Part shown: in pieces, positions 4,301 through 54,222 of the stretch | Layout of the letters: the number at the start of each line of letters is the position of its first letter | How positions within the stretch are numbered: the stretch's first letter is position 1 | Assembly (NCBI GenBank): GCA_038231135.1 | Contig: JBBRLX010000007.1 | Span: 65,475 to 129,474, forward strand | Length of the DNA stretch: 64,000 nucleotides | Direction: 5' to 3' | Origin: Candidatus Eiseniibacteriota bacterium | GTDB taxonomy: Bacteria > Eisenbacteria > RBG-16-71-46 | Notes under the pieces: model-generated | The model's input: the letters and a program-made list of their open reading frames with translations, nothing else | Database searches by the model: none | Told to the model about the DNA's origin: nothing | Position numbers and translations under genes: made by a program

Positions 4301-5046
4301 GATGCCGCCTCCGCGTCGTAGCTCACGTGCTCGAGCGACAGCCCGCGCGCGGGCGCCGTGCGGGCCGCCGCGGCGCGGTCGCGCGCCGCCAGCACCGCGA
4401 GCATCGCCGCGCCCGGATCGCGGGTCCGGGCGGCGTCGACCACGGTGCCCACGATGTTGCGCACCATGTGATAGAGAAAGTGATCCGCGGCGATGTCGAG
4501 GCGCGGGCCCGAGTCCGACCCGGACCATGCGGCGAGATCGATGCGGCACACGGGATCGGCGGGCGAGCTGCCGGTGGCGCGGAACGACGAGCAGTCGTGG
4601 CAGCCGAGCAGCGGACGGGTCGCGGCGGCGAGCCGGTCGAGGTCGGGGGTGTGCCGCGGCCACCATGCAAACCGTCCCAGCAGCACGTCGTCGTGATCGA
4701 GCAGCCGGTACTGGTAGCGGCGCGCCCGCGCCGAGTGGCGCGCGTGGAATCCCGCGTGGGCCTCGGCGGCCGCCCGCACCCGCACGTCCGCCGGCAGCGC
4801 CCGGTCGAGCAGCGGGCGCAGCGCCTGCGCCGGCAGCGCGGTCGCGCTGTCGAACGACGCCACCTGGCCCCGCGCATGCACGCCGGCGTCGGTGCGTCCC
4901 GCCGCGTGCAGCGCCGCGACCGGTCCGCCCAGCACCCGGGCGAGCGCCTCCATCAGCGTGCCCTGCACCGTGCGCAGCCCGGGCTGCGACTGCCAGCCAT
5001 GGAACCCCGTGCCGTCATAGGCCACGAGCAGGCGGAACACCCGCAT
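4297..5046 (-). CDS. truA: tRNA pseudouridine(38-40) synthase TruA
   Basis: The product contains LVAYDGTGFHGWQSQ, GRTDAGVHA and the rest of the TruA fold motifs. Confidence 0.9.
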   Translation of the reverse strand: MRVFRLLVAYDGTGFHGWQSQPGLRTVQGTLMEALARVLGGPVAALHAAGRTDAGVHARGQVASFDSATALPAQALRPLLDRALPADVRVRAAAEAHAGFHARHSARARRYQYRLLDHDDVLLGRFAWWPRHTPDLDRLAAATRPLLGCHDCSSFRATGSSPADPVCRIDLAAWSGSDSGPRLDIAADHFLYHMVRNIVGTVVDAARTRDPGAAMLAVLAARDRAAAARTAPARGLSLEHVSYDAEAAS

Positions 5047-24660: not shown

Positions 24661-26448
24661 TCACCAGTCACGGCCACGGCGTTCCTTGAGCACGCGTACC
24701 TTGTGCTGGCGCTGCTGATCCATGCGCTGCATCTCCTGCAGCGCGTCGAGGATCTGTTCGGCCTGCGCGCGTCCCATGCCCTGGCGCGGCTGCGGCGCGC
24801 CCTCTGGCTGGGGCTCAGGACTCGGCGCGGGCGCCTGGCCGGGATTCGACTGCGGACTGGGCTGCGGGTTCTGCTGCGGTTGCGACGGCGAGGTCTGTGA
24901 CGGCGACGGCTGCGGCTGCGGGTTCTTCCGGGGCTGCTGCGATTGTGACTGCTCCCGCCGGCGCGCCAGCACTTCATAGTTCCAGCGCGCGTCGGCGTCC
25001 TCGGGATTGCGCTCGAGCGTGCGGCGCAGCGCACCCAGGGCGGGCTCGTATTGCTTCGCGTCGCCGAGCAGCGTGCCCAGGTTGTAGCCGGCCTCGTGAC
25101 CGGTGCGGTCCCCGCTCTGGGACAGGGTTTCCAGCTCGTGAATGCCCTCGGGTCCGTGGCCCGCGAGCGCGCGCGCCGTGGCGCGATTGACCCGCACGCC
25201 GGCGGGCGCATGCGGATCCTTGAGGCGCAGCGTATACAGCGACTCCGCCGCGGCGTAGCGGCCGGCCCGGAACGCCTGGTCACCGCGCGCCCACGCGCTC
25301 TGCGCCCGGACGTCGCGCGGCGCCAGCGCGGTCGCGGCCAGCGCGAGCGCCAGCAGCACCGCCGCCGCCGTCCGGCGGCGCTCGCCGCGGCCGCGCGCGC
25401 GCCGCACCGGAGTGCGGGCCGCGGACGCGGCGGCGAGCGGCGCCGCAGCCGCGCGGCGGCGCCCCGCGCGCGTGCGCTCGATCATGAGCAGCAGCGCGGC
25501 CAGCAGCGCGCACAGCGGGAACCGCCCGATCGGTCGCTCGATCAGCCGGTTGCCGCGCCCCGACTGCGCCACCGCGCCGAGCGACGCCAGCAGGCGCGGC
25601 AGCTCGCCGCCCGGACGCGACGCGGCGAAGTAGCCGCCGCGCGACCGTCGCCCGATCTGGCGCAGCAGGTTCTCGTCGAGCCGGCTGCGCACCGCGCTGC
25701 CGTTCTCGTCGCGCTTGATGTCGACGGCGCGCCCCTGGTCGTCCGTGACCGGCACCACGTCGCCGGCCGGCGTGCCGACGCCGACCGCGAACACCCGCAC
25801 GCCGCTGCCGACCACCTGGTCGAGCGCGCCCGTCGCGCCCTGCTCCAGGTCCTCGCCGTCCGTCCACAGCACGATGACCTGCTCCTCCCGATGCCCGGGC
25901 GGCAGCATCTTGAGCGCGGTGCGCAACCCCTTGCCGAGATCCGTGCCCGGTTCCGCGATCGTGAGGCTCGTGAGTCCTTCGATCGTGAGCCGCGCCGCGG
26001 CGCGGTCCAGCGTGAGCGGGCACAGCCGCACCGCCTCGCCGGCGAACCCGACGACCCCCACGCGGCTGCCGCCCAGCCGGTCGACGACGGCGAGCGCCTC
26101 GCGGCGGGCCTCGTCGATGCGGCTCGGCGGCACGTCGCGCGCGTCCATGCTCGCCGACACGTCCACCACCAGCACCACGTCCGAGCCCGTGGAGCCGCGG
26201 CGCACGGCCTCGCGGCCCCATTCGGGACGCGCCGCGCCGAGGATGAGGAACGCGAGCGCCACGAGCCGCAGCGTCGCGCCGATCGCGCGCTGGCCCGGAC
26301 GCAGCTGCCCGAGCAGCGCGTGCTCCGGACGCCCGCCGACGAGCCGCGCGAGCGCCGCCGCCGCGCGGCGCGCGGCGAACGCCTCGAGCAGCGCCACCAC
26401 CGGCAACGCCAGCAGCGCCATCAGCCAGCGCGGGTCGGCGAATGTCAC
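24661..26448 (-). CDS. batB: BatB-BatC fusion: a VWA domain with TM helices joined to a TPR repeat protein with a Pro/Gln/Ser-rich tail
   Basis: The N-terminus is BatA/BatB-like (VTFADPRWLMALLALPVVALL), followed by a VWA MIDAS motif (VVLVVDVSASM), a TM helix, a second signal/TM segment (TAAAVLLALALAATALA), TPR repeats and a PQ-rich low-complexity C-terminus. There is no stop codon between the BatB-like and BatC-like parts. The GTG start at 26448 has GGAGG 7 nt upstream. Confidence 0.7.
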   Translation of the reverse strand: MTFADPRWLMALLALPVVALLEAFAARRAAAALARLVGGRPEHALLGQLRPGQRAIGATLRLVALAFLILGAARPEWGREAVRRGSTGSDVVLVVDVSASMDARDVPPSRIDEARREALAVVDRLGGSRVGVVGFAGEAVRLCPLTLDRAAARLTIEGLTSLTIAEPGTDLGKGLRTALKMLPPGHREEQVIVLWTDGEDLEQGATGALDQVVGSGVRVFAVGVGTPAGDVVPVTDDQGRAVDIKRDENGSAVRSRLDENLLRQIGRRSRGGYFAASRPGGELPRLLASLGAVAQSGRGNRLIERPIGRFPLCALLAALLLMIERTRAGRRRAAAAPLAAASAARTPVRRARGRGERRRTAAAVLLALALAATALAPRDVRAQSAWARGDQAFRAGRYAAAESLYTLRLKDPHAPAGVRVNRATARALAGHGPEGIHELETLSQSGDRTGHEAGYNLGTLLGDAKQYEPALGALRRTLERNPEDADARWNYEVLARRREQSQSQQPRKNPQPQPSPSQTSPSQPQQNPQPSPQSNPGQAPAPSPEPQPEGAPQPRQGMGRAQAEQILDALQEMQRMDQQRQHKVRVLKERRGRDW

Positions 26449-42868: not shown

Positions 42869-45800
42869 CTAGAACTCCGGACCTACGGACACGTGCCAGC
42901 GGGGGCGGCTGGTGCCGGCCAGGTTGGTGTTCCACCCCGCGTCGACCTTGAGGATCAGGAAGTAGAGCGCCGTGCGGATGCCGGCGCCGAAGCCGAGCTT
43001 CAGGTCGTCGAGACGGCGGCGGCCGTCCTCCACGCTCGACAGCCGCACGCGGTCGGCGGCGTCCCACACGAATCCCGCGTCCGAGAACAGCGCGCCGCGG
43101 AGGTTGAACACTCCGACCGGGATCGGTCCCAGGATGCCGAGCTGCTCGATGAACGGGAATCGCAGTTCGGCATTGACGATCGCCACGCGCGAACCGAGCA
43201 GGTCGAAATCGGGATAGCCGCGCAGCGTCGAATACCCGCCGACCCGGAACGTCTGCCGGTCGGGGCCGTCGCTGCGGCCGGTGAGTACGCGGGTGGCGAA
43301 CGTATAACCCCGCGTGAGGTCCCAGTAGCGCCGCGCGTCGAACGTGACGGTCTGGTACTGCAGCGCGTCGTGGAGCACCGCGAACGCCGGCGCGTAGGTC
43401 AGGTTCCAGCGCTGACCGTTCACGGGGCCGTAGTAGCCGAACAGCGCATTGTCGCCGATCAGCGACAGCGACGGCGACGTGACGGCGCGGTACTGCCGGG
43501 TGGACTTGAAGAAGTTCCCGGCGTCGTCCTCGGCGAAGAACTGCCGGTCGACGAACATCTGGGTGAGGTTGAGCTCCGCGCGCCGGAACCGGTCGAACGG
43601 ATACGACGCCGTGACGAGGCCGCCGAACGTTCGCTCCGAGAACAGCCGCGTGCCGTCGAGCTGTTCGCCGAGCGTCGTCACCTGCGACGAGAAGTAGTCC
43701 TTGAAATGGAACAGCCCGGCGCCGAAGTCGACCCGCCGCTTGAGATAACTGTAGACCACGAGCGCGTTCGTCTCGCTGATCGAGCTCGAGAACAGGTCGG
43801 TCGCGACGTACAGGCTGTGGTCGCCGAGGAAGTCGCTGAACGCGAACTGGGTGCTGCCGACGAAGCCGAACCCGCTGCCGGCGTAGAACCCGCCCCCGGC
43901 GTAGTCCGGCGCCAGCCGCACGTGGTAGCGCGACGGTCGCTGCGCCAGCACCGAGTCCGGCAGCGCAAACGGGCCGCCGTGCTCGACGAGCGCGATGCGC
44001 GGCACGATCGCGGCCACGGTGTCCATCGGCACCGGCAGCCGGGTCTCGCCGGCGAACCGGTCGTCGATGGCGCCCCGGCCGGAGCGCCTGGTCCCGGCGG
44101 GCGGCCCGAGCCCGCCGGTCGCGGGGAACGCGAGCGTCGAATCCTCGTGCGTCACGGTCACGCTGTCGGGCAGCGTGCGCGCGAGCGCCGCCACTCGCGG
44201 CGGCGGCGCGGCCGAGTCGGCGGGCGCGCTCCGCGCGGTCGCCGAATCGAGCACCGCTCCCGGCGAGCGCCGGCGCAGCCGCTCGAACACCGCGTCGAGC
44301 GACAGCGGCTCCCTGACCGCGAACACGTCGAACCCGCCGCGGTTGAACGCCGCGAACACCAGCCGGTCGTTCTGCCGCGACCACGACAGGCTCTGCACGC
44401 CGCCGAGCACGTCGGTGAGCTGCACGTACGAGCGCTCGGCGACGTCGTACAGATAGACATTGGACGTGCCGTCACGGTCGCTGATGAACGCGAGCCGCCG
44501 GCCGTCGGGAGACCACGCGGGCGCGTGGTCGTTGCCGGAGGTGTCGAGCGTGCGGGTGATCGCGCCCGATGCCAGATCCAGGCTGTAGAGCGCGTAGCTG
44601 CCGAAGCCGCCCGCGCGGGCCGCCGGTTCGAGCACGACGGGCGCGAGCCGGTCGGAGGCGAACGTCAGCGTGCGGCCGTCGGGCGTCCACGCCGGCTCCT
44701 TCTCGTCCCAGGTGTCGTTCGTGAGCCGCGTGGCCGCACCCGTCGCGGCGTCCACCAGCCACAGGTCCGACCGGCCGTCCTTCACCCCGGCCACCGCGAT
44801 CGAGTCGCCGTGCGGCGCCCACGCCGGGTAGTACAACGCCTCGCACGGGAGCTGGATGCGCTTGAGCGTGCTGCCGTTGCGCGCCGACACCACGTACAGC
44901 ACGTCGCTGCCGCCGCTCTTCGCGGTGAGCGCGAGCCTCGAGCCATCGGGCGACCAGGTGATCGAGCTGCGGTACGACGGGATCGCCTCGTACTGGTAGT
45001 TGCGCTCGCCGCGGATCACGCGGTGCAGCACCTTGCCGTCGAACGCGGACATCACGTAGATGTCGGTGTACTGGCGGCGGTCCGAGAACCACGCGATGCG
45101 GTCGCCCTGCGGCGAGATCGCCGGCGCGGTGTTGAGCGTGCTCTGATCACGCCGGTGATCGGTGAGCCGCCGAGCGAACTCCTCGGGCGACTGCTTGTGC
45201 GCCACGGTCGGCCAGTAGCGCTTGCGCAGCCAGTTGCGCCACTGTTCGTCGAACTTCGGCACCGACAGTCCGACGCTGGCCTGGAACGCGCGCTCGAAGC
45301 CGTGGTTCTGCCGGATGCGCTTGAGGATATCGCGCAGCCGGTCCTCCCCGTAGCGCTCGACGAGATAGCCGAGCGCCGACTGCCCCTGCTTGTAGACGAT
45401 GTAGCCGCCCGAGTACATGAGCGGCGGCAGGTAGCCCTCGATGATGCCGTCGCGCAGGAACATCTCGGCGTTCGGTTCCATGCCGAGCGACAGGTACTCC
45501 GCCATGCCCTCGGCGAACCACAGCGGCACCGAATAGAAGCTCTGCCGCGCGATCAGCGCCGCCGCCGACCCGCCGTACAGCATGTCGAACATGATGGCAT
45601 GCGTGAGTTCGTGCACCACCACGTGGCGCAGGTCCTCGTAGGAGCCGGTGAACGGCAGCACCACCCGGTTGCGCAGCACCTCGGTGAACCCGCCGGTGCC
45701 GGCGTCGATCAGCTCGGGCGTGACGTTGGTCTGGGAGAACTCGTTGTGGGAGCCATACAGAATGATGGGGACGCGGCGCGACAGCACATGGCCCATGCGC

Positions 45801-46027
45801 ACCGACAGCACGGCGTGCGTCTTCTCGGCAAGGTCGAGCACCCGCATCGCGAGCGAGTCCTCGCCGGCGTAGAAATACACGTCGAAGTGGTCGGATTCGA
45901 TCGAGCGCCAGTCGTGGACGCTGTACTGGACCTTGTTCTGGCCGAAGTACTGGGCGTGAGCGGTCCCGGCGGGAACGAGGGCGAGCAGCGCGAGCAGTGC
46001 GCCCACGGCAATGTGCAGACGATGCAA
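42869..46027 (-). CDS. Outer-membrane Omp85-family (bacterial surface antigen D15) beta-barrel protein with an N-terminal zinc-metallopeptidase-like domain and a TolB-like PD40 beta-propeller; it has no POTRA domains
   Basis: It has a signal peptide (the proposed TTG start gives MHRLHIAVGALLALLALVPAGTAHA, with GGGGTGAG upstream). The N-terminal domain has an HEXXH motif (VVVHELTHAIMFD) and FAEGMAEY. The central region has PD40-type repeats (WSPDGSRLAL, WAPHGDSIAV, WTPDGRTLTF, WSPDGRRLAFISDRDG). The C-terminal ~330 aa aligns to the BamA barrel (RGY ... VNAELRFP ... ALFSDAGFVWD ... GFGAGIRT ... WHVSVGPEF, ending in an aromatic residue). Confidence 0.7.
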   Translation of the reverse strand: MHRLHIAVGALLALLALVPAGTAHAQYFGQNKVQYSVHDWRSIESDHFDVYFYAGEDSLAMRVLDLAEKTHAVLSVRMGHVLSRRVPIILYGSHNEFSQTNVTPELIDAGTGGFTEVLRNRVVLPFTGSYEDLRHVVVHELTHAIMFDMLYGGSAAALIARQSFYSVPLWFAEGMAEYLSLGMEPNAEMFLRDGIIEGYLPPLMYSGGYIVYKQGQSALGYLVERYGEDRLRDILKRIRQNHGFERAFQASVGLSVPKFDEQWRNWLRKRYWPTVAHKQSPEEFARRLTDHRRDQSTLNTAPAISPQGDRIAWFSDRRQYTDIYVMSAFDGKVLHRVIRGERNYQYEAIPSYRSSITWSPDGSRLALTAKSGGSDVLYVVSARNGSTLKRIQLPCEALYYPAWAPHGDSIAVAGVKDGRSDLWLVDAATGAATRLTNDTWDEKEPAWTPDGRTLTFASDRLAPVVLEPAARAGGFGSYALYSLDLASGAITRTLDTSGNDHAPAWSPDGRRLAFISDRDGTSNVYLYDVAERSYVQLTDVLGGVQSLSWSRQNDRLVFAAFNRGGFDVFAVREPLSLDAVFERLRRRSPGAVLDSATARSAPADSAAPPPRVAALARTLPDSVTVTHEDSTLAFPATGGLGPPAGTRRSGRGAIDDRFAGETRLPVPMDTVAAIVPRIALVEHGGPFALPDSVLAQRPSRYHVRLAPDYAGGGFYAGSGFGFVGSTQFAFSDFLGDHSLYVATDLFSSSISETNALVVYSYLKRRVDFGAGLFHFKDYFSSQVTTLGEQLDGTRLFSERTFGGLVTASYPFDRFRRAELNLTQMFVDRQFFAEDDAGNFFKSTRQYRAVTSPSLSLIGDNALFGYYGPVNGQRWNLTYAPAFAVLHDALQYQTVTFDARRYWDLTRGYTFATRVLTGRSDGPDRQTFRVGGYSTLRGYPDFDLLGSRVAIVNAELRFPFIEQLGILGPIPVGVFNLRGALFSDAGFVWDAADRVRLSSVEDGRRRLDDLKLGFGAGIRTALYFLILKVDAGWNTNLAGTSRPRWHVSVGPEF

Positions 46028-46190
46028 GAACTCACCCCTCTTGAGCCCCGGATTCGGGTTCGCCCGGCCGAAGCGCCCACACGATGATACCCCGGAACCG
46101 TCCCGGATTCCCAAACCTGCATCGGCAGTTCCGCCGGCCCCCGTGAGGTCATGAATTGCCCCGGCCGGCACTCCTAACCGGCCTGCCGCC

Positions 46191-49100
46191 TCAGTATTCC
46201 CACCGAGCCTTGAGGTTCACGTTGAAGTCCGGCGGCGACGTGCTGGAGACGTTGGCGGTGCCGGGCCGGTGCTGGGTGATCTCGGTGGTCAGATAGATGA
46301 ACCGGCTCAGCCGGTACTCGGCCTCGAGATCGCGCTCGAGGAACGTCGAGGTGCCGGGCCCGGTCGGGGTCCGCTCGAGCCCCGGCAGGTGCTGCCGGTA
46401 GCGCAGCGCGATCTGGGGGGAGACCTGGGTGCCGGCGGTGAGGATCACGCCGCCCTCCCCGCCGAACAGCCCGCCCCGGTCGCGGTCGATCTGCCACTCG
46501 TTGATGTAGCCGCGGAACGCGCGCGACATCTCCGACGAGAACGTGCGGTTGATCGCGCGCGTGATGTAGTTGTCGAGCGGGTCGCCGAGCGGCACGCCGG
46601 CGGCGCCGGCGGTGAGCCGGCTGAGCGTCAGGTTCTGGAGGATCTCCGCCTGCCCCCAGGCCGCCTCGTCGCTGCTGAGCACGATCTTGGGCTCGTTCGC
46701 GCGGCCGGTGATGTGCACCGTCACCTGCGACTGATGGGTCTGGCCGTTCTCGTACACCGGCACCTGGGTCACCGCCGTCGCGTCCAGCGTCGGGTTCACG
46801 CCGGACACGTTGTCGAACGTCAGGTCAACGTTCTGCACGTCGAACCGGTTGCTGAGGAAGTAGTACTTGCCGCGCAGCGCGTGCATCTCGCCGTAGAGCA
46901 CCAGCGCCTCGGGCCGCTGCTCGACGTCGAGATTCAGGTTGAACTCGATGTCGCCGTCGGGCGGCTGCCAGTGCACGTTGTTGTTCGCGGACAGGTGGAC
47001 GTTGTAGGTCCAGAACAACGGTGCCGCGGTCTGCGCCACCAGATCCTGCTCGCTGACGTTCGCGAAGTCGTACAGGATCACGGCGCGACGCAGCGTGGCG
47101 TTGCCGGTCACGTACGGCAGCCGCTGCCCGCGCACCACCGGGCCGTCGGTGATCTGGAACGCGCCGTCGAACAGCGCGGCGTACAGACCCGGCTCCGTGG
47201 TCGCGATCTCGGTGACGCCGAGCTTGAACTGGTAGCCCTTGAGCCCGCCGTTCGCGAGCTCCACGGTTCCGCTCCCGGTGACGCGGCCGCGATCGCCCTG
47301 CCGCGCCGTCAGAGTGTCCACGGTGATCTTCGCTTCGTCGAGCCGAACGCTCGCGGTGACGTTCTGGAACAGCTCGTCACGGCCGGTCATGCGCACGACG
47401 CCGTCGCTCACCTTGAGCGTGCCGTCCAGGTCCGGGTGCCGCGGTGTGCCCGTCACGCTGGCCCGCAGCTCGAACTTCCCCGCGGCGGTGCCGATCTGCG
47501 GCACCACCAGCCGCGCCATCGACAGGTCGCCGTTCGGGATGTCGATGCGCCACGCCATCGGCGACTCCGGCACCTCGACCGGGCGCCCCATCGCGAGCAC
47601 GAGCGGCATCGCGCCGGACGCCGTCGATTCGCGGCCGCCGCGCTGCATGTGCAGCTCCGGCACCGTGAGCTGCCCGGCGGCGTAGCGGGCATGACCGCGC
47701 ACGTCCTCGATGTCGATCGCCTGCCACGTCAGCTTGCTCGCGTCGAATGTGGCGTCGAGCACCGGCCGCACCGGACTGCCCTCGATGCCGATCCGCCCGC
47801 TCACCGTGCCGCCCCAGTCGTGCGCGGCGGGCACCAGCTGCCGCAGCCGGTCGAGCGGCAGCGCGGCTCCGGTCAGCTCACCGTTCCAGTCCCCCGCGCC
47901 TTCGATCCAGCGCAGGACGCCGGCCGCGGTCAGCGTGTCGGGCCAGGCGTGCGCCAGATGGTCGAACGCCAGCGAACCCGTCACGCTGCCGGCGGCGATC
48001 CGGAACGCGCCGTTGCGCACCAGCACCGCCCCCGGCCGGCCTTCGAGCTCGAACCGCAGCGAGTCGGCGGCGTGACCATCCCAGCCGGGACGGGACACCG
48101 CCGCCGCCATGTTCCAGTGGGGATCGCCGGCGGCCCCGCGCACCTCGAGCGTGGCGTCGGCGGCCCCCGCCAGGTGGACCTCGGGGGGCATGCCGAGCCG
48201 CGACAGATCGAGCCGCTCGGCCCGCGCCTGCCAGTCATAGCTGCCGCCCGGCACCGCCCAGCGGCCGGTGATGGTGACCGTGGCCAGGCTGTCACGCGCG
48301 ACCAGGCGGTCGAACGTGACGCCGCGCGCGTCACCGGCGAGCGTCACCGGCGCCTCCGCCCGCCAGTCGAACTGCGAGCTGCGCAGCCGCGCGCGATCCA
48401 GCGCCAGCTGCCATGCGCCGGCGTTCCAGTTCGACCGCCCGGCCATCGTCACCAGCGTGTCGCCCGCGAACGCCGACAGATCCTCGAGCGCGATCGTCTG
48501 GTTGCCGAGCAGGAACGGCGTCGCGACGCTGTCGAAGTGGAGGCCGAGGAACGTGACGTTGCCGAGCCGCGCGCGGGCGGCGAGGTCGGGGGCGGGCAAC
48601 AGCGCCCCCGACGCGTCGTCGAGCGCCCAGCGCGCCGCCTGCATCCCGAGCCAGCTCGTGCCGGTGCCGGTGAGGTTGCCGGTGACGAGCAGCGCCCCCG
48701 CCTTGCCCTCCACGGTGCCCTCGCCGTGGCCGAGCATTCCCTTGATGCCGCTGGCGCGGCCGTCGGGCCACTCCTCGAGCGGCAGGTTGTCGACGCGGTA
48801 GCTGCCGGTCCAGCCCTGCTTCGTGGTCATGGCCCGCAGCAGCATCGTGCCGCCGCGCCGCACCACGTTTACGGCGAAGCTGTCGGGGGCCGCGTTCGGG
48901 AACTCGACGTTCACCGTGCCGCCGTCCACGCGCCAGCCCTGCAGCTCGGAGGTGGTCAGCGTCGCGACGAGATTCGCGGTCTGCGCATGGCTGTGGGTAT
49001 CGACGGCGTAGCGGAACGTGCCGGCCACGACGCCCTTCGGCCAGCCGGTGATGCCGATCGCGCCCCAGCGGCTGGGATCGGCGGTCTCGACCGCGCCGCC

Positions 49101-50285
49101 GATGTTCCAGCCGGCCCTGGACCATTGGAGATCGCCCGCGAGATTGCCCGCCGCCGACACCAGGTGCAGCGGCTCGAGCTTCACCACCCCGTGATCCCAC
49201 CGCGCCACCCCGGAGGCCTGGGCCGGCAGGTCCTTCCACGTTGCGGAGCTCGTGAACTGCGCCGTCCACACCCGCGAGCCTGAGGCGGTGATCGAGCCGC
49301 GCGCCTCGCCCGGCACGTCGAGCGTGTGGTTGTCGGTGACCTCGGACAGCCAGCGCCACGACAGCCGCGCGACCTCCAGATCCACGTGCCGGATCCGCGT
49401 GGAGTCGGCATCGAGCCATTCGGCGACGCCCTTGAGCTCGAGATCGTCGGTATGCAGGCGGTCGAGCCGGATGCGGACGGTGTCGCCCTTCTCGACCGAG
49501 CCCTTGAGCTCGAGGTGCCGGGTCCGGAACGGACCCTGGGCCCAGCGCAGGTGGCGCACGACGCCGCGGGTGCTGGCGCCGATCGACACGCCGGCGTCCA
49601 GGTCCATGTCGCTCACCGGGTCGATCGCGGCGGCGATCGCCACCGAACCGTGCAGCACGCGCAGGTTGACGTCGAGCGCCGTGCTGCCGCCGGTGGCGCT
49701 GCCGCTCGAGCGCCACACCGGCGCCCGCAACCGCCCGTCCTTGCCCTTCGAGATCCGGATCACCGGCGACTCGATGACCACGTCGATCGTACGCCGGTCG
49801 CGACGCAGCCATTGCAGCGGCGAGTAGTTGAGCTGGATCCACGGCGCCTCGAGCAGCGCCGGCGTCTCGCCGTCGGTGAAGTACACCCGGGGCTTGATCA
49901 GCCGCACCCGGTCGAACGGATTGCCGCTGATGTCGTGGATCTCGACCTGCACGTCGCTGCGCTGCGCGAGTGCGCCGTTGATCACCAGCGTGAGCTCCTT
50001 CGCCACCAGCTCGGTGCGCCGCGCGAAGTACAGCAAGGCACTGACGATCGCGATCACCACCAGCCCCACCAGGATCAGCGCGACGAGCCCGATCAGCTTG
50101 CGCACCGTCCAGCGCACCTGCTTGGGCACATGCTCGACCACTTCCTCGACCGCGTGCCCCAGCTCCGCGACCTCGTGACGCAACTCCTCGACAATCCCCT
50201 GCGGCTCAGGCGGCGGCTCCGGCGCACCTCCGCCGGATCCCAATTCCGGGTCGCGCGGAACGAGCGGATCTTCCGGCGGAGTCAT
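46191..50285 (-). CDS. tamB: Translocation and assembly module protein TamB (AsmA-like / DUF490 family)
   Basis: The ORF is 1364 aa with an N-terminal TM anchor (LIGLVALILVGLVVIAIVSALLYF), a long beta-rich body and a DUF490-like C-terminus (GEMHALRGKYYFLSNRFDVQNVDLTF ... NLKARWEY). Confidence 0.8.
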   Translation of the reverse strand: MTPPEDPLVPRDPELGSGGGAPEPPPEPQGIVEELRHEVAELGHAVEEVVEHVPKQVRWTVRKLIGLVALILVGLVVIAIVSALLYFARRTELVAKELTLVINGALAQRSDVQVEIHDISGNPFDRVRLIKPRVYFTDGETPALLEAPWIQLNYSPLQWLRRDRRTIDVVIESPVIRISKGKDGRLRAPVWRSSGSATGGSTALDVNLRVLHGSVAIAAAIDPVSDMDLDAGVSIGASTRGVVRHLRWAQGPFRTRHLELKGSVEKGDTVRIRLDRLHTDDLELKGVAEWLDADSTRIRHVDLEVARLSWRWLSEVTDNHTLDVPGEARGSITASGSRVWTAQFTSSATWKDLPAQASGVARWDHGVVKLEPLHLVSAAGNLAGDLQWSRAGWNIGGAVETADPSRWGAIGITGWPKGVVAGTFRYAVDTHSHAQTANLVATLTTSELQGWRVDGGTVNVEFPNAAPDSFAVNVVRRGGTMLLRAMTTKQGWTGSYRVDNLPLEEWPDGRASGIKGMLGHGEGTVEGKAGALLVTGNLTGTGTSWLGMQAARWALDDASGALLPAPDLAARARLGNVTFLGLHFDSVATPFLLGNQTIALEDLSAFAGDTLVTMAGRSNWNAGAWQLALDRARLRSSQFDWRAEAPVTLAGDARGVTFDRLVARDSLATVTITGRWAVPGGSYDWQARAERLDLSRLGMPPEVHLAGAADATLEVRGAAGDPHWNMAAAVSRPGWDGHAADSLRFELEGRPGAVLVRNGAFRIAAGSVTGSLAFDHLAHAWPDTLTAAGVLRWIEGAGDWNGELTGAALPLDRLRQLVPAAHDWGGTVSGRIGIEGSPVRPVLDATFDASKLTWQAIDIEDVRGHARYAAGQLTVPELHMQRGGRESTASGAMPLVLAMGRPVEVPESPMAWRIDIPNGDLSMARLVVPQIGTAAGKFELRASVTGTPRHPDLDGTLKVSDGVVRMTGRDELFQNVTASVRLDEAKITVDTLTARQGDRGRVTGSGTVELANGGLKGYQFKLGVTEIATTEPGLYAALFDGAFQITDGPVVRGQRLPYVTGNATLRRAVILYDFANVSEQDLVAQTAAPLFWTYNVHLSANNNVHWQPPDGDIEFNLNLDVEQRPEALVLYGEMHALRGKYYFLSNRFDVQNVDLTFDNVSGVNPTLDATAVTQVPVYENGQTHQSQVTVHITGRANEPKIVLSSDEAAWGQAEILQNLTLSRLTAGAAGVPLGDPLDNYITRAINRTFSSEMSRAFRGYINEWQIDRDRGGLFGGEGGVILTAGTQVSPQIALRYRQHLPGLERTPTGPGTSTFLERDLEAEYRLSRFIYLTTEITQHRPGTANVSSTSPPDFNVNLKARWEY

Positions 50286-50353
50286 GAGCCGATCACCAGC
50301 CCGCGCAGCCGCGGCGCGGGAGCGCAGCCGACGAAACAGGCAACCACGTGCCG

Positions 50354-50504
50354 CGATGGCGTGCGGGGTGAGGTTCCGGAGGCGGGGACCGAGCGCAGCG
50401 CGCGAGTGCAGGGATGCGCGGAGCGCTGCGCGAGTAGCGAGGACCCGCCAGGAGGGCGGGTCCGAAGCGTCCCCGCCGTAGGAACCTCACCCCGCACGCC
50501 ATCG
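50354..50504. repeat. A 151-bp element with 35-bp terminal inverted repeats (32/35 matching) enclosing an 81-bp spacer that has inner hairpins, in the bamA-tamB intergenic region
   Basis: The left arm is cgatggcgtgcggggtgaggttccggaggcgggga (50354-50388). The right arm is tccccgccgtaggaacctcaccccgcacgccatcg (50470-50504), which is its reverse complement with 3 mismatches. An inner 8-bp-stem hairpin, gacccgcc-aggag-ggcgggtc, lies at 50442-50462. A 14-bp palindrome, TCACCGCGCGGTGA, lies at 50548-50561. The two short opposite-strand MACGVRF ORFs in the track mirror this repeat. Confidence 0.7.
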
Positions 50505-50577
50505 CAGCGAAGAACCCGTCCCCGCCGGGGGAATCTCACCCCGGTCGTCACCGCGCGGTGAAGGCGCAGAACACGCA

Positions 50578-52485
50578 TCAGAACGCCGGCCCAATCGCAA
50601 ACTGAAAAATTCCCCGCTGCCGCTTCCCCGTCTCGTCCGGCCGCGCCCACCAGGTGAAATCCACCCGCAGCGGCCCGAACGGCAGCTGCAGCCGCGGTCC
50701 GAAGCCGAACACGAACCGCACGTCGTTCGGCGTCATGCGGCTCGAGCTGATCTCGGGCACGAACCGGCCGCGCTTCACGGCGTCGAACCCCGTCCATACG
50801 TTGCCAGCGTCCACGTACAGCTCGAGCCCGAGCGGCCCCAGCACGTCGACGCGCAGTTCCACGTTGCCCTGCAGCAGCACGAGGCCGCCGTTCGCCGGCA
50901 GCTCGCGTTCGTCGTAGCCACGCAGCGAGTTTACGCCACCGATCTTGAACCGGTCGAACACCGGCACGCGCGCCACCCCGGGATCGGTGGTGGAGTCGCT
51001 GGAGAACAACACGTCCTTGCCGAACGGCCGGATGACGCCGCCGCGGGCGTGGGTCGCGAGCAGCCAGCCCGGACGCAGCGGCGTATACCACGACGATTCG
51101 AGGTGCTGCTTGGTGAAGCTCGACGTGCCCTGCAACGGGCCGCCCGCGACCTCGGACGTGAACGCCTGGTACGACCCCCGCGTCATGAGCACCGGATGAT
51201 CGCGCGTGTCGCGGGCGACCTCGAGCTGCAGCCGGTGCGTGGTATAGGACGGCTCGAGCAGCGAATCGCCGACCGTGGGGTCCGTCACCACCTGGCTCTG
51301 CGTCACCCACGCGTTGTCCTGGGTGAGCGCCAGCGTGGCGTAGCGGCCGAGCTGGCGCGACACCTGGAAGCTGACGCCGCGCGACTGGCTCTCGATCAGC
51401 CGGGGGGGGCTGGTGGGGCGGTCGTGCTGGTTCACGTAGTACAGCGTGAGCAGCCCGCGGGTACGCGTGGCGAACAGCCACGGCTCGAGCAACGTGGTCT
51501 CGATCCGGCTCAGGAGGAACCGCGCCTGGCCATCGAGCGCGAGCCGGCCGTCCACCGTGCCCTGGCGGCCGCTGCCGAGCAGGCTGCGGTGGCCCCATTC
51601 GCCGGTCGCCAGCACCCGTTCGCTGGTGCCGCTGCCGATGCCGGCGTCCACCCAGCGATGGCGGCGCTCGTGGAGGCCCAGGTCGAACTCCACGCGGGCC
51701 GCGGTCGAATCCATGAGCGGCGTCATCTGCACCTGGTCGAACATGCCGGTCTCGTACAGGTGCTCGACCGATTGCTGCACGCGGGTGGAGCGGTACACCG
51801 CGTCCGGCTTGATCAAGAGCTCGCGCCGCACGAAGTGCTCGTTGACCGACAGCTTGTCCAGGTCCGGGATGCGGACCTCGCCGAACCGGAACCGCTGGCC
51901 CTCGGTCACGTCGTAGCGCACGTTCATCGAGAAGTCGTGGCGCTCGGTGACGGCGTGGACCGAGGGGAAGTACCCGCGGTCCTTGTACGCCTCGGCGATC
52001 TTCGCGGTGTCGGCCACCAGGAAGTACGGGTTGAACGCCTTGTGCCGTTTCGCGAACAACAGGCGGCGCAGTGCGTCGCCCTGGATCGCCGTCACGCCCG
52101 TGAGGTCGATGCGGCCGATGTGGGTCTGGCGGCCCTCGATGATCTTGAACCGCACGATCACGGTGCCGGCATCGTGCCCGGGCACGAGCTCGTAGCCGGC
52201 GGCGACGTCGAGGTAGCCGTGCTGGTGGTAGACGTCCTCGATCGCCTGGACGTCGGCGCCGAGAAAGTCCATCCGCAGCACCGGCATCTGGCGCGACAGG
52301 ATGTGCCCGCTCGCCCGCGTCTTGAGCGCCTTCTTGAGGTCCTTCGCGTTCACGTGCCTGCGGCCTTCGAACCGAACCCCCGCGACGCTGGTGAGTTCGT
52401 TCGGCAGGCTGGTGGCGGCGCGCGCCAGGGGTGCGGGACCGAGCAGCATCACCACGAACGCAAACCGGGCCAGTGCCGTACGCAC
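50578..52485 (-). CDS. bamA: Omp85-family outer-membrane protein assembly factor (BamA/TamA-like) with POTRA domains
   Basis: The product has a signal peptide (ALARFAFVVMLLGPAPLARA), POTRA-like repeats, and an Omp85 barrel (FKIGGVNSLRGYDERELPANGG ... VELRVDV ... GNVWTGF ... IFQFAIGPAF). It sits in an rseP-bamA order, with tamB immediately downstream. The start is uncertain; I chose the GTG at 52485 because it avoids overlap with rseP. The track ORF start at 52698 would overlap rseP. Confidence 0.7.
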   Translation of the reverse strand: MRTALARFAFVVMLLGPAPLARAATSLPNELTSVAGVRFEGRRHVNAKDLKKALKTRASGHILSRQMPVLRMDFLGADVQAIEDVYHQHGYLDVAAGYELVPGHDAGTVIVRFKIIEGRQTHIGRIDLTGVTAIQGDALRRLLFAKRHKAFNPYFLVADTAKIAEAYKDRGYFPSVHAVTERHDFSMNVRYDVTEGQRFRFGEVRIPDLDKLSVNEHFVRRELLIKPDAVYRSTRVQQSVEHLYETGMFDQVQMTPLMDSTAARVEFDLGLHERRHRWVDAGIGSGTSERVLATGEWGHRSLLGSGRQGTVDGRLALDGQARFLLSRIETTLLEPWLFATRTRGLLTLYYVNQHDRPTSPPRLIESQSRGVSFQVSRQLGRYATLALTQDNAWVTQSQVVTDPTVGDSLLEPSYTTHRLQLEVARDTRDHPVLMTRGSYQAFTSEVAGGPLQGTSSFTKQHLESSWYTPLRPGWLLATHARGGVIRPFGKDVLFSSDSTTDPGVARVPVFDRFKIGGVNSLRGYDERELPANGGLVLLQGNVELRVDVLGPLGLELYVDAGNVWTGFDAVKRGRFVPEISSSRMTPNDVRFVFGFGPRLQLPFGPLRVDFTWWARPDETGKRQRGIFQFAIGPAF

Positions 52486-52604
52486 GGGCCCCAGTCTGCC
52501 GGCGACGAGCGTCCGCTTCCGGATTCGCGCCCTCGCCCATTCCAGTGAATCGTGTTGCGACGCTCCGGGTCCGCTATGGCGGAGTCGGGGCAACCGTGTT
52601 CTCC

Positions 52605-54002
52605 TCAGGGAGCGGAGGCAGGGGAGCGATGGGGGGCGGCGGAAGTCGCCGACGTCGACGTGCGACCGAGTGCGCGCTGGCGCTGCACCACGCGCCACGG
52701 ATCATTGGCCAGAATCAACACCAGCAGCGAGCCCATCATCACGAGACCCACCTGCTGGAACCGGGTGTAGGCCAGGGCGGAAATCTTCTGGCGGCGGATC
52801 GCCTCGATCACCGCGAGCAGGATGTGGCCGCCGTCGAGCACTGGCAGCGGCATCAGGTTGAACGCCATGATCGCGATGTTGATCATCGCGAGGAACTGCA
52901 GGAAGAAATCGGGACCGCGCTTCGCCTGTTCGCTCGCCACCTGGGCGATGAACAACGGTCCCCCGACGTACTCCCGGTAGTAGAGCGGGCGCGACACGGT
53001 GAGCCACATGCCGGCGTAGACGTTGCGGATCACTTCGCCGGTCGCGTGCCAGCCCATGTCGATCGACTCCAGGATGCCGGAGCGCTCGATGAACTTGCCC
53101 TGCCGCGGGGCTTCGATGCCAATCCGCGCGTTGTCGCTCTGCGCGCCCGTGTTCATCGGCACGATATCGACGTTAAACGTGCGTCCACCACGATCGACCG
53201 TCAAGTGCACGGTGCGATCGACATTGCCCCTCAAGGACAGCGGCAGATCGTCCCAGGTCGTGATTCGTTTGCCGTTCACCGCCAGAATGCGATCACCCTC
53301 CTTGATGCCCACCTTGTACGCCGGCATACCCGTTATGACGGCGCCGACGATCGGCAACGTTGGAGGCAGTCGAAAATTCGAGAACACGGGCTCGCGCCGG
53401 TCCGCCGGCACCGTGATCGTCAGGTGGCTGCTCAGGACGCCCACATCGGGCCGCTCGATGGCCAGCACGACCGCACGATCCTTCGGAACCCGGGAATATG
53501 CGTAGAACATCTGCTCCCAGGTCGACACCGGACTGCCGTTCAACGCCACCAGCCGATCCCCAGTACGAAAGCCGGCCTGATACGCGACGCTGGTGTCCGG
53601 CGTGGCCCCGAGCAAGTTCGGGTAGTCGGGACGGGATATCCCGATCATGCCGATCGTGCACAGGATGATCAGCGCGGTGAGGAGATTGCAGGCGGGGCCC
53701 GCGGCCGCGATCAGGATGCGGCCGTACCAGGGGTGCGACAGGAACTCCTCGTCCGAGTTCGGCATGTCGCCTTCGGGGCTCGGGCTGTCGCCCGCCATCG
53801 CGACGTAGCCGCCGAACGGGATCCACGCCAGGCGATACTCGGTGCCGCCCCGGGTGAACGAGAACATCGCGGGGCCGAATCCGAGCGAAAACCGGATCAC
53901 CCGGACACCCCGCCATTTGGCCATCAGGAAATGGCCGAGCTCATGGACAAATATGACCAATCCGAGCACCAGAATGCCCGGCAACACGAGATTCCAAGAC
54001 AC
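52605..54002 (-). CDS. rseP: RIP (site-2) zinc metalloprotease RseP, M50 family with PDZ domains
   Basis: The product has an HEXXH motif in TM1 (FVHELGHFLMA), PDZ domains and an LDG motif (LMPLPVLDGGHIL). The proposed GTG start at 54002 has AAGGA 7 nt upstream. The track 'M' at 54032 is a TTG codon. Confidence 0.8.
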   Translation of the reverse strand: MSWNLVLPGILVLGLVIFVHELGHFLMAKWRGVRVIRFSLGFGPAMFSFTRGGTEYRLAWIPFGGYVAMAGDSPSPEGDMPNSDEEFLSHPWYGRILIAAAGPACNLLTALIILCTIGMIGISRPDYPNLLGATPDTSVAYQAGFRTGDRLVALNGSPVSTWEQMFYAYSRVPKDRAVVLAIERPDVGVLSSHLTITVPADRREPVFSNFRLPPTLPIVGAVITGMPAYKVGIKEGDRILAVNGKRITTWDDLPLSLRGNVDRTVHLTVDRGGRTFNVDIVPMNTGAQSDNARIGIEAPRQGKFIERSGILESIDMGWHATGEVIRNVYAGMWLTVSRPLYYREYVGGPLFIAQVASEQAKRGPDFFLQFLAMINIAIMAFNLMPLPVLDGGHILLAVIEAIRRQKISALAYTRFQQVGLVMMGSLLVLILANDPWRVVQRQRALGRTSTSATSAAPHRSPASAP

Positions 54003-54222
54003 GGTCAAATCCTTATGGGCTAAGGTGTTCAACGCAGGCTACTGCCCGGGTTCCGAGCGGTCAAGCAGCGCCTCGAAGGGAATCGATACGGCAATAGTCC
54101 AATGACTAGGCAAGAGCCGGACCGCCGGCCGTAACCGCCCCGGTGAGTCGTACACCGTGACCCCGGCGGCATTCGCCTGCACCGGGTTGGATTCCCCCAA
54201 CCGGCGATTCGGCTCGCACGAT

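Follow-up and report, generated by a model that had tools for sequence, protein, structure and literature searches.

A lineage-specific, possibly MITE-like palindromic insertion between bamA and tamB in a Candidatus Eiseniibacteriota genome

The window, i.e. the whole stretch of 64 kb of DNA that was analysed, has a G+C content of about 72% and carries nearly all of its genes on the minus strand, where rseP, a bamA-like gene, a long spacer and tamB follow one another in this order. The rseP gene (52605-54032, minus strand) encodes Peptidase_M50 and PDZ domains and lies directly upstream of bamA. The bamA-like open reading frame spans 50578-52698 and encodes Omp85 and POTRA domains, with BamA as its best NCBIfam match (TIGR03303, below the cut-off). 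In public data the Omp85 gene is represented by a protein of 671 aa (P0001; 50578-52593, minus strand), which ends in Phe-stop and is found once among public proteins at 100% identity. The next-best match to this protein has 67% identity, more distant BamA relatives (42-50% identity) are labelled Candidatus Eisenbacteria, and the homologues stem from uncultured bacteria; a close relative is absent from the data searched. The tamB gene (46191-50285, minus strand; 1364 aa, Pfam TamB) is preceded by a weak Shine-Dalgarno sequence of its own, GGTGA, 7 nt upstream of the ATG. Between the bamA stop codon (TGA, 50580-50578) and the tamB start codon (ATG, 50285-50283) there is a non-coding spacer of 292 nt (50286-50577, minus strand), the G+C content of which (73.6%) equals that of the genome.

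Upstream of rseP, a block (54000-54066, minus strand) is conserved in five lineages, namely the window, L003, L006, L008 and L011. It contains TTGACC (54064-54059), followed after 17 nt by TAGCCT (54041-54036), and then AAGGA within a CCTTAGCCCATAAGGATTTGAC stretch ahead of a GTG start (54002-54000). By its sequence the block looks like a sigma-70-type promoter with a Shine-Dalgarno sequence for an rseP-bamA-tamB operon. A second conserved motif, CTCTTGC, is located ~50 nt further upstream, and the 5' region of rseP (53821-54020) has a low G+C content (0.56-0.61) and is a folding outlier (z -4.25). A scan of the bamA-tamB spacer for promoter-like sites found none. With a conserved promoter-like block before rseP and none in the spacer, co-transcription is the simplest reading, and we infer that rseP, bamA and tamB are transcribed together from the conserved promoter that precedes rseP. 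The gene that immediately follows tamB (42869-46171, minus strand) encodes a protein of ~1060-1100 aa that joins Peptidase_MA_2 and TolB/PD40/Tricorn-type beta-propellers to a C-terminal Omp85-type barrel. This fusion is kept in all relatives (L006 from 12345 onward, L008 from 7984 onward, L011 from 12131 onward), and its presence beside bamA-tamB is an unusual architecture.

The spacer is dominated by a long inverted repeat. Arm A (50350-50389) is G-rich on the plus strand and forms the 3' arm of the sense (minus-strand) RNA, and arm B (50469-50508) is C-rich on the plus strand and forms the 5' arm. The arms are 40 nt each, are complementary at 36 of 40 positions with a perfect core of 25 nt, and enclose 79 nt, giving an element of 159 nt (50350-50508). 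The first-pass annotation had described arms of 35 nt, and on re-inspection these are indeed reverse-complementary with three mismatches (32/35). When 40 sequences of 64 kb each were simulated with a first-order Markov model, the best 40-nt inverted repeat within 400 nt reached 27-30 matches, compared with the 36 of 40 of the real pair. Within the window the arm pair is the best-matched long inverted repeat, the others being 71-84% complementary.

The same annotation overlooked a third, degenerate copy of the arm. Copy C (50517-50554) is a direct repeat of arm B at a period of 49 nt with 31/38 matches, and its complementarity to arm A amounts to 79%. By chance, the arm found at most 23-27 matching positions in 100 simulated sequences of 64 kb, and after copy C the next-best arm match in the window itself has 23. 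One unit is therefore present in the spacer three times, once inverted and twice in tandem. The base content of the unit is strand-asymmetric, with 22 G and 9 C in arm A and 20 C and 9 G in arm B, and both arms (50469-50505 and 50353-50389) read RNLTPHAIAA in one frame.

Further symmetric features lie inside and beside the element. The inner segment (50390-50468, 79 nt) contains two 9-bp hairpins that form a three-way junction with the arms. One of them (50441-50449/50455-50463, loop of 5 nt) was already recognized on first reading as a hairpin with an 8-bp stem; the hairpin is present, but its stem measures 9 bp. The other consists of the stem GCGCAGCGC/GCGCTGCGC (50393-50401/50423-50431, 9 bp), which accounts for the GC-rich quasi-palindromes reported there. 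A perfect palindrome of 14 bp, TCACCGCGCGGTGA (50548-50561), overlaps the outer end of arm copy C and begins 17 nt downstream of the bamA stop, so that its earlier placement just 3' of the stop codon is correct in the direction of transcription (minus strand).

Folding identifies the 159-nt element as the strongest structural outlier of the window (MFE as RNA -128.2 kcal/mol, z -15.6), in line with the structured character that had been attributed to the region. It ranks first on both strands among ~3200 sliding windows of 160 nt, with GC-corrected window z-scores of -6.1 and -5.6 on the two strands. The whole 292-nt spacer folds with -192.9 kcal/mol (z -7.7) as sense (minus-strand) RNA and with a z-score of -10.0 on the plus strand, while the 80 nt that separate the element from the start of tamB show no unusual degree of structure. 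In the predicted sense RNA, 28 consecutive pairs (one G-U) are followed by a 3x3 internal loop, a further 9-11 pairs and the three-way junction, which is closed by the arms and the two 9-bp hairpins. The DNA fold of the element has the same layout. G-U pairs were considered as a pointer to a selected strand and dropped, since one wobble is gained on each strand at mismatches and they are therefore uninformative in this respect. Equally good folding of both strands is expected of any DNA palindrome and is not specific to a selected RNA.

The composition of the spacer is that of non-coding DNA. The G+C content at codon positions 1, 2 and 3 is 0.69/0.48/0.92 in bamA and 0.70/0.50/0.94 in tamB, whereas the spacer and the two mirrored short open reading frames that the repeat gives rise to show a flat profile (0.70-0.79). 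When the spacer was translated in six frames and the concatenated product was searched against 5.8 billion proteins, no match at E <= 10 was returned. The flat codon-position profile together with the lack of homologues led us to reject a genuine small protein in the spacer, and the two mirrored frames (65 aa and 69 aa) are artefacts of the repeat, as the first-pass annotation had stated. Searches for tRNA and tmRNA genes in the spacer found none, and Rfam gave no match at gathering thresholds in the window, the best one in E-value mode scoring 15 bits against a required 43. Elsewhere in the window, a stretch of 88% G+C (25340-25537) contains an inverted repeat of 52 nt (25340-25391/25427-25478, 71%), and ARAGORN reports within it a “tRNA-???” with a four-base anticodon (25444-25537, minus strand), a probable false positive inside a gene region of the VWA/BatD type.

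Comparison of the same locus in five related lineages (L004, L006, L008, L010 and L011; BamA 61-67% identical) indicates how the spacer arose. In three of them the bamA TGA and the tamB ATG overlap as TGATG (L006, 8063-8067; L008, 3685-3689; L010, 2587-2591), an arrangement that suggests translational coupling. The gap between the genes amounts to 9 nt in L011 and to 45 nt in L004, the closest relative (4590-4636). Since the genes overlap or are separated by 9-45 nt in all five lineages, and their tamB starts all align with the one at 50285, the 292-nt spacer is a lineage-specific insertion, which supports the insertion option among the explanations offered at first reading. As judged from these alignments, the insertion separated bamA from tamB. 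Across the loci of the relatives (~110 kb) there is no inverted repeat that is comparable to the element.

Both edges of the insert retain traces of the original junction. The window keeps TTCTGATG at the end of bamA and CTCATGAC at the start of tamB, such that the ancestral junction looks split, with an ATG on both sides (CTGATG ... CTCATG, 5/6). The CTCATG at the tamB start (50283-50288, minus strand) is thus a 5/6 direct repeat of CTGATG (50576-50581), which lies at the stop codon of bamA. With the complete insert of 292 nt between them, the two hexamers may represent a duplicate of the TGATG junction of the ancestor. “TGATGC” follows the bamA stop in L004 as well, and the 45-nt spacer of this lineage contains ATGACCGC twice. 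The duplication of the junction may therefore predate the palindromic element, for which reason the CTGATG/CTCATG pair was not counted as a target-site duplication of the element. Judging from these repeats, the bamA-tamB junction seems prone to small duplications.

The location of the element within a putative operon raises the question of what it does at the RNA level. Adjacent bamA and tamB genes are found in Spirochaetes, Acidobacteria and others, where they are presumably co-expressed (PMC4494059, PMC5582053), and TamB and BamA interact in lineages in which tamB lies beside bamA (PMC5582053, PMC4494059). The likeness of the present locus to these operons concerns the gene context and not the element, and here the pair is split by 292 nt. 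The first-pass annotation had considered an intrinsic terminator. However, the main stem ends at 50350 and the nearest U-rich run (CUGUUUCGUC) starts 11 nt later, so that no U-tract abuts the big stem and a canonical terminator is not supported. The sole match of a scan for terminator-like sites (50330-50354, minus strand) has a stem of 5 bp (GCGGC...GTTGC) followed by CTGTTTCGTC and lies directly after the 3' arm of the big hairpin; with one site found against 0.7 expected by chance, it is at chance level. The suggestion of a small structured RNA, as an independent transcript, found no support either: Rfam gives no match, the spacer lacks a promoter-like site and the relatives show no conservation. 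RNase III, by comparison, calls for a helix of at least ~20 bp, or about two turns, and the predicted helix has 28 bp, which makes the element a structurally plausible substrate in the modelled fold.

A selected cis-regulatory RNA, be it an attenuator, a partial terminator, a thermosensor or a processing site that sets the BamA:TamB ratio, would fit the extreme stability of the element, its long perfect helix on the sense transcript and its position between two functionally linked genes whose products interact. Arm copy C could even serve such an RNA as an alternative, weaker partner for arm A. Yet the five related lineages have an overlap or a short spacer in place of the element, and since it is absent from every relative there is neither conservation nor covariation to draw on. 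In addition, the main stem is not followed directly by a U-tract, no Rfam family matches, and the two strands fold equally well, as they would for a DNA palindrome. We therefore regard a selected regulator as improbable.

The reality of the sequence itself was assessed with independent assemblies. The right half of the spacer (50432-50577), comprising two arm copies and a hairpin, is base-for-base identical in Logan assemblies of two sequencing runs, L001 and L002, the contigs of which (k=31) run from bamA straight through arms C and B. Both contigs (L001, end 11474; L002, end 3529) stop at window position 50432, and the left half (50286-50431) lies beyond them and is represented by the contig of the metagenome-assembled genome (MAG) alone. 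Exact-protein look-ups of tamB, rpsB and tsf found no record, and a search for homologues of the TamB N-terminus did not yield the protein of the source genome. Position 50432 is 37 nt into the inner spacer and does not coincide with the edge of an arm, nor do repeats of at least 31 nt account for the contig ends; possible causes are reduced coverage of the GC-rich hairpin or a variant in the population immediately past this base. The restriction of the left half to one contig and the end of the Logan contigs of both runs at 50432 would be consistent with a fold-back or chimeric join in the MAG. Against such an assembly artefact, the right half is confirmed by the two independent assemblies, the sequence runs on into the expected syntenic tamB at the homologous start codon, and arm A differs from arm B at four positions and is therefore no mirror copy, all of which renders an artefact very improbable.

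The coincident contig ends could also hint at heterogeneity in the population, as expected if the 40-nt arms acted as recombination sites of an invertible DNA switch. A short segment flanked by long inverted repeats has the outline of such a switch, but the 79 nt between the arms are very short compared with known invertible segments. Moreover, inversion would branch the assembly graph at the boundary between arm and spacer (~50481) and not at the observed break within the spacer. The 64 kb contain no recombinase or invertase, and the segment no promoter-like hexamers, so that a switch is scarcely credible.

If the element belonged to a mobile family, further copies might be visible elsewhere. 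In the window, with its ~50 genes, a mismatch-tolerant pattern search, blastn-short and an nhmmer profile built from the three arms detected no arm copies beyond the three known ones, and the loci of the relatives (~110 kb) contain no copies of the element. The inner-arm pattern common to the three copies had no match in 185,579 representative genomes (one per species), which implies that this collection does not include the source genome. The same pattern gave no match in JGI metagenomes, and a relaxed version gave one, inside a coding region. For the outer 20-mer of the arm, the representative genomes gave 22 single matches, which come from unrelated phyla, are all coding and are never paired. 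These are accounted for by the LTPHAIA reading of the arms in one frame, so that such coding matches are a trap for short exact-word searches for copies of the element. In viral contigs of IMG/VR the relaxed pattern yielded 18 chance coding matches with no inverted-repeat partner, and blastn against the plasmids of PLSDB returned nothing related. Two further results bear on copy number: the lack of any match to the spacer frames in 5.8 billion proteins argues against many gene-called copies in sequenced genomes, and the unbroken passage of two k=31 assemblies through arms C and B argues against near-identical arm copies in those samples.

Marks of transposition at the locus are similarly sparse. 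The first-pass annotation had proposed a check for flanking target-site duplications, and no clean direct repeat abuts the arms of the 159-nt element. The nearest candidate is AACCACGT left of arm A with AACCCGT 4 nt right of arm B; the pair is offset and as a target-site duplication only suggestive. Pfam and NCBIfam searches found no transposase, integrase, recombinase or RAYT domain among ~40 open reading frames of the window, which belong to non-mobile families or to none. The former include purB, a DegP-like protease, lnt, purM, argS and cca as well as a Bat/MoxR cluster, glyA, purD, gatCAB and uvrD. Ends of the Tn3 type, as in TIMEs, were considered on account of arms of ~38 nt with GGGGTGAGG and rejected: the GGGG has inverted-repeat sequence on either side and is therefore no terminus. 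An integron attC site, a retron ncRNA and an IS200/605 guide RNA were likewise discarded, as there is no adjacent integrase, reverse transcriptase or TnpB. The parent IS of a MITE at this locus would be expected to end in GCGATGGCGTGCGGGGTGAGG.

These results can also be read as the outcome of a local event. A palindrome made in place, by template switching during replication or by duplication and inversion of a ~49-nt unit in a short pre-existing spacer, would be non-mobile, unique and neutral. All three copies would then be confined to one spacer, as is seen in the 64 kb, and nothing related would be expected in the genome, metagenome, viral and plasmid collections searched, which, however, lie outside the source genome. 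A local origin would also explain why there is no target-site duplication, no transposase among the ~40 open reading frames and no repeat-induced break in the Logan contigs at arms C and B. The tandem of B and C at a 49-nt period looks like a local duplication, and the doubled ATGACCGC of L004 makes the same junction seem prone to slippage. On the other hand, the source of the unit is absent from the neighbouring genes and the rest of the window, and ~250 nt of new sequence, including two unrelated hairpins, are left to account for. Furthermore, long terminal arms around a structured core are typical MITE architecture. Taken together, a local, non-mobile origin appears possible but rather unlikely. 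For the MITE-like insertion proposed at first reading, the insertion part stands on the comparison with five relatives, while membership in a MITE family is not established, with a single locus found.

Several traits of the element are nevertheless those of a MITE. It has terminal inverted repeats (40 nt, 36/40) far above chance, is small (159 nt; 292 nt for the whole insert) and non-coding and contains no internal transposase. Bacterial MITEs span a size range that includes both its length of 159 nt and its arms of ~40 nt. According to a recent review (PMC10969869), the copy number per genome is between 1 and 22 in some MITE families, and a low copy number thus does not exclude a MITE.

Among the described kinds, the Correia elements (CREE, NEMIS) of Neisseria are similar in being non-coding, ~100-200 bp long and composed of a core between long terminal inverted repeats. 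Often they are co-transcribed with the flanking genes, and their long hairpin is bound and cleaved by RNase III, which cuts co-transcripts at the inverted repeats (PMC2649163, PMC10969869). In contrast to the present element, they occur in >100 copies per genome and carry promoters and an IHF site; here one locus was found, which lacks a TA duplication and a promoter-like site and has no sequence similarity to them. A TA target duplication is characteristic of Correia elements, and their arms are ~26 nt long, compared with 40 nt here. ERIC sequences and other orphan intergenic palindromes are also imperfect palindromes (~127 bp) that are transcribed within operons, and the insertion of ERIC at gene 3' ends alters transcript levels (PMC10969869). 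ERIC is, however, a conserved multi-copy family, and no family is demonstrable for the element.

The REP and BIME sequences of enterobacteria and pseudomonads resemble the element in being extragenic and GC-rich, in their position within operons at gene 3' ends and in their clustering of units in alternating orientation. Each REP unit is itself an imperfect palindrome, though, and REPs are present in hundreds of copies and are associated with a RAYT transposase. The units of the element are strand-asymmetric, do not fold on themselves and pair only with each other, so that the element fails the REP definition. It was moreover found at one locus in 64 kb with ~50 genes, and there is no RAYT in ~40 open reading frames. 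Intercistronic REP stem-loops protect the upstream mRNA from 3' exonucleases, for example at malE-malF. In anatomy the element comes nearest to Correia/ERIC-type MITEs, and its layout of three units is closest to that of BIME-like clusters. It was accordingly filed as an orphan small intergenic palindromic or MITE-like element and assigned to no named family.

The explanation we prefer for the locus as a whole, held with about even confidence, is that a MITE-like insertion split bamA and tamB and that the resulting RNA helix probably lowers tamB relative to bamA. The ~290-nt insertion comprises a 38-40-nt unit in three copies, two of them direct and one inverted, as well as two small hairpins, and in its anatomy resembles a MITE- or BIME-like palindromic element accompanied by a solitary arm copy. 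It entered, or expanded, a bamA-tamB junction that was ancestrally overlapping (TGATG) or close. If the genes are co-transcribed, the sense RNA would form the 28-bp helix with the 3x3 internal loop, 9-11 bp more and the three-way-junction cap. Such a helix could act as an intercistronic barrier that blocks 3'->5' exonucleases or as a processing site that is cut by RNase III. Translation of tamB would then depend on its own weak GGTGA, with less TamB made per BamA. By analogy with Correia elements and REP stem-loops, the bamA message would be expected to be more stable or abundant and tamB to be lower. The origin of the element was probably selfish or neutral, rather than that of an evolved regulator.

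A more far-reaching version of the preferred reading would see in the element the first visible member of an undescribed MITE or palindromic family from an Eisenbacteria-like lineage of uncultured soil bacteria. The host would have put it to use as a barrier to exonucleases or a site for RNase III, by which the synthesis of TamB is uncoupled from that of BamA; we consider this version decidedly improbable. As documented here, the element is a single palindrome, restricted to one lineage and familiar in its architecture, and is probably of modest importance. Its main value is for annotation, in that the mirrored short open reading frames should be left uncalled and assembly breaks are to be expected at the element. 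If the proposed effect on expression is true, the locus would provide a natural experiment in which an overlapping or close gene pair has become two cistrons parted by a very stable RNA helix, with a changed stoichiometry of two interacting factors of outer-membrane biogenesis. A candidate phylum in which mobile elements are essentially undescribed would moreover gain an example of small palindromic elements.
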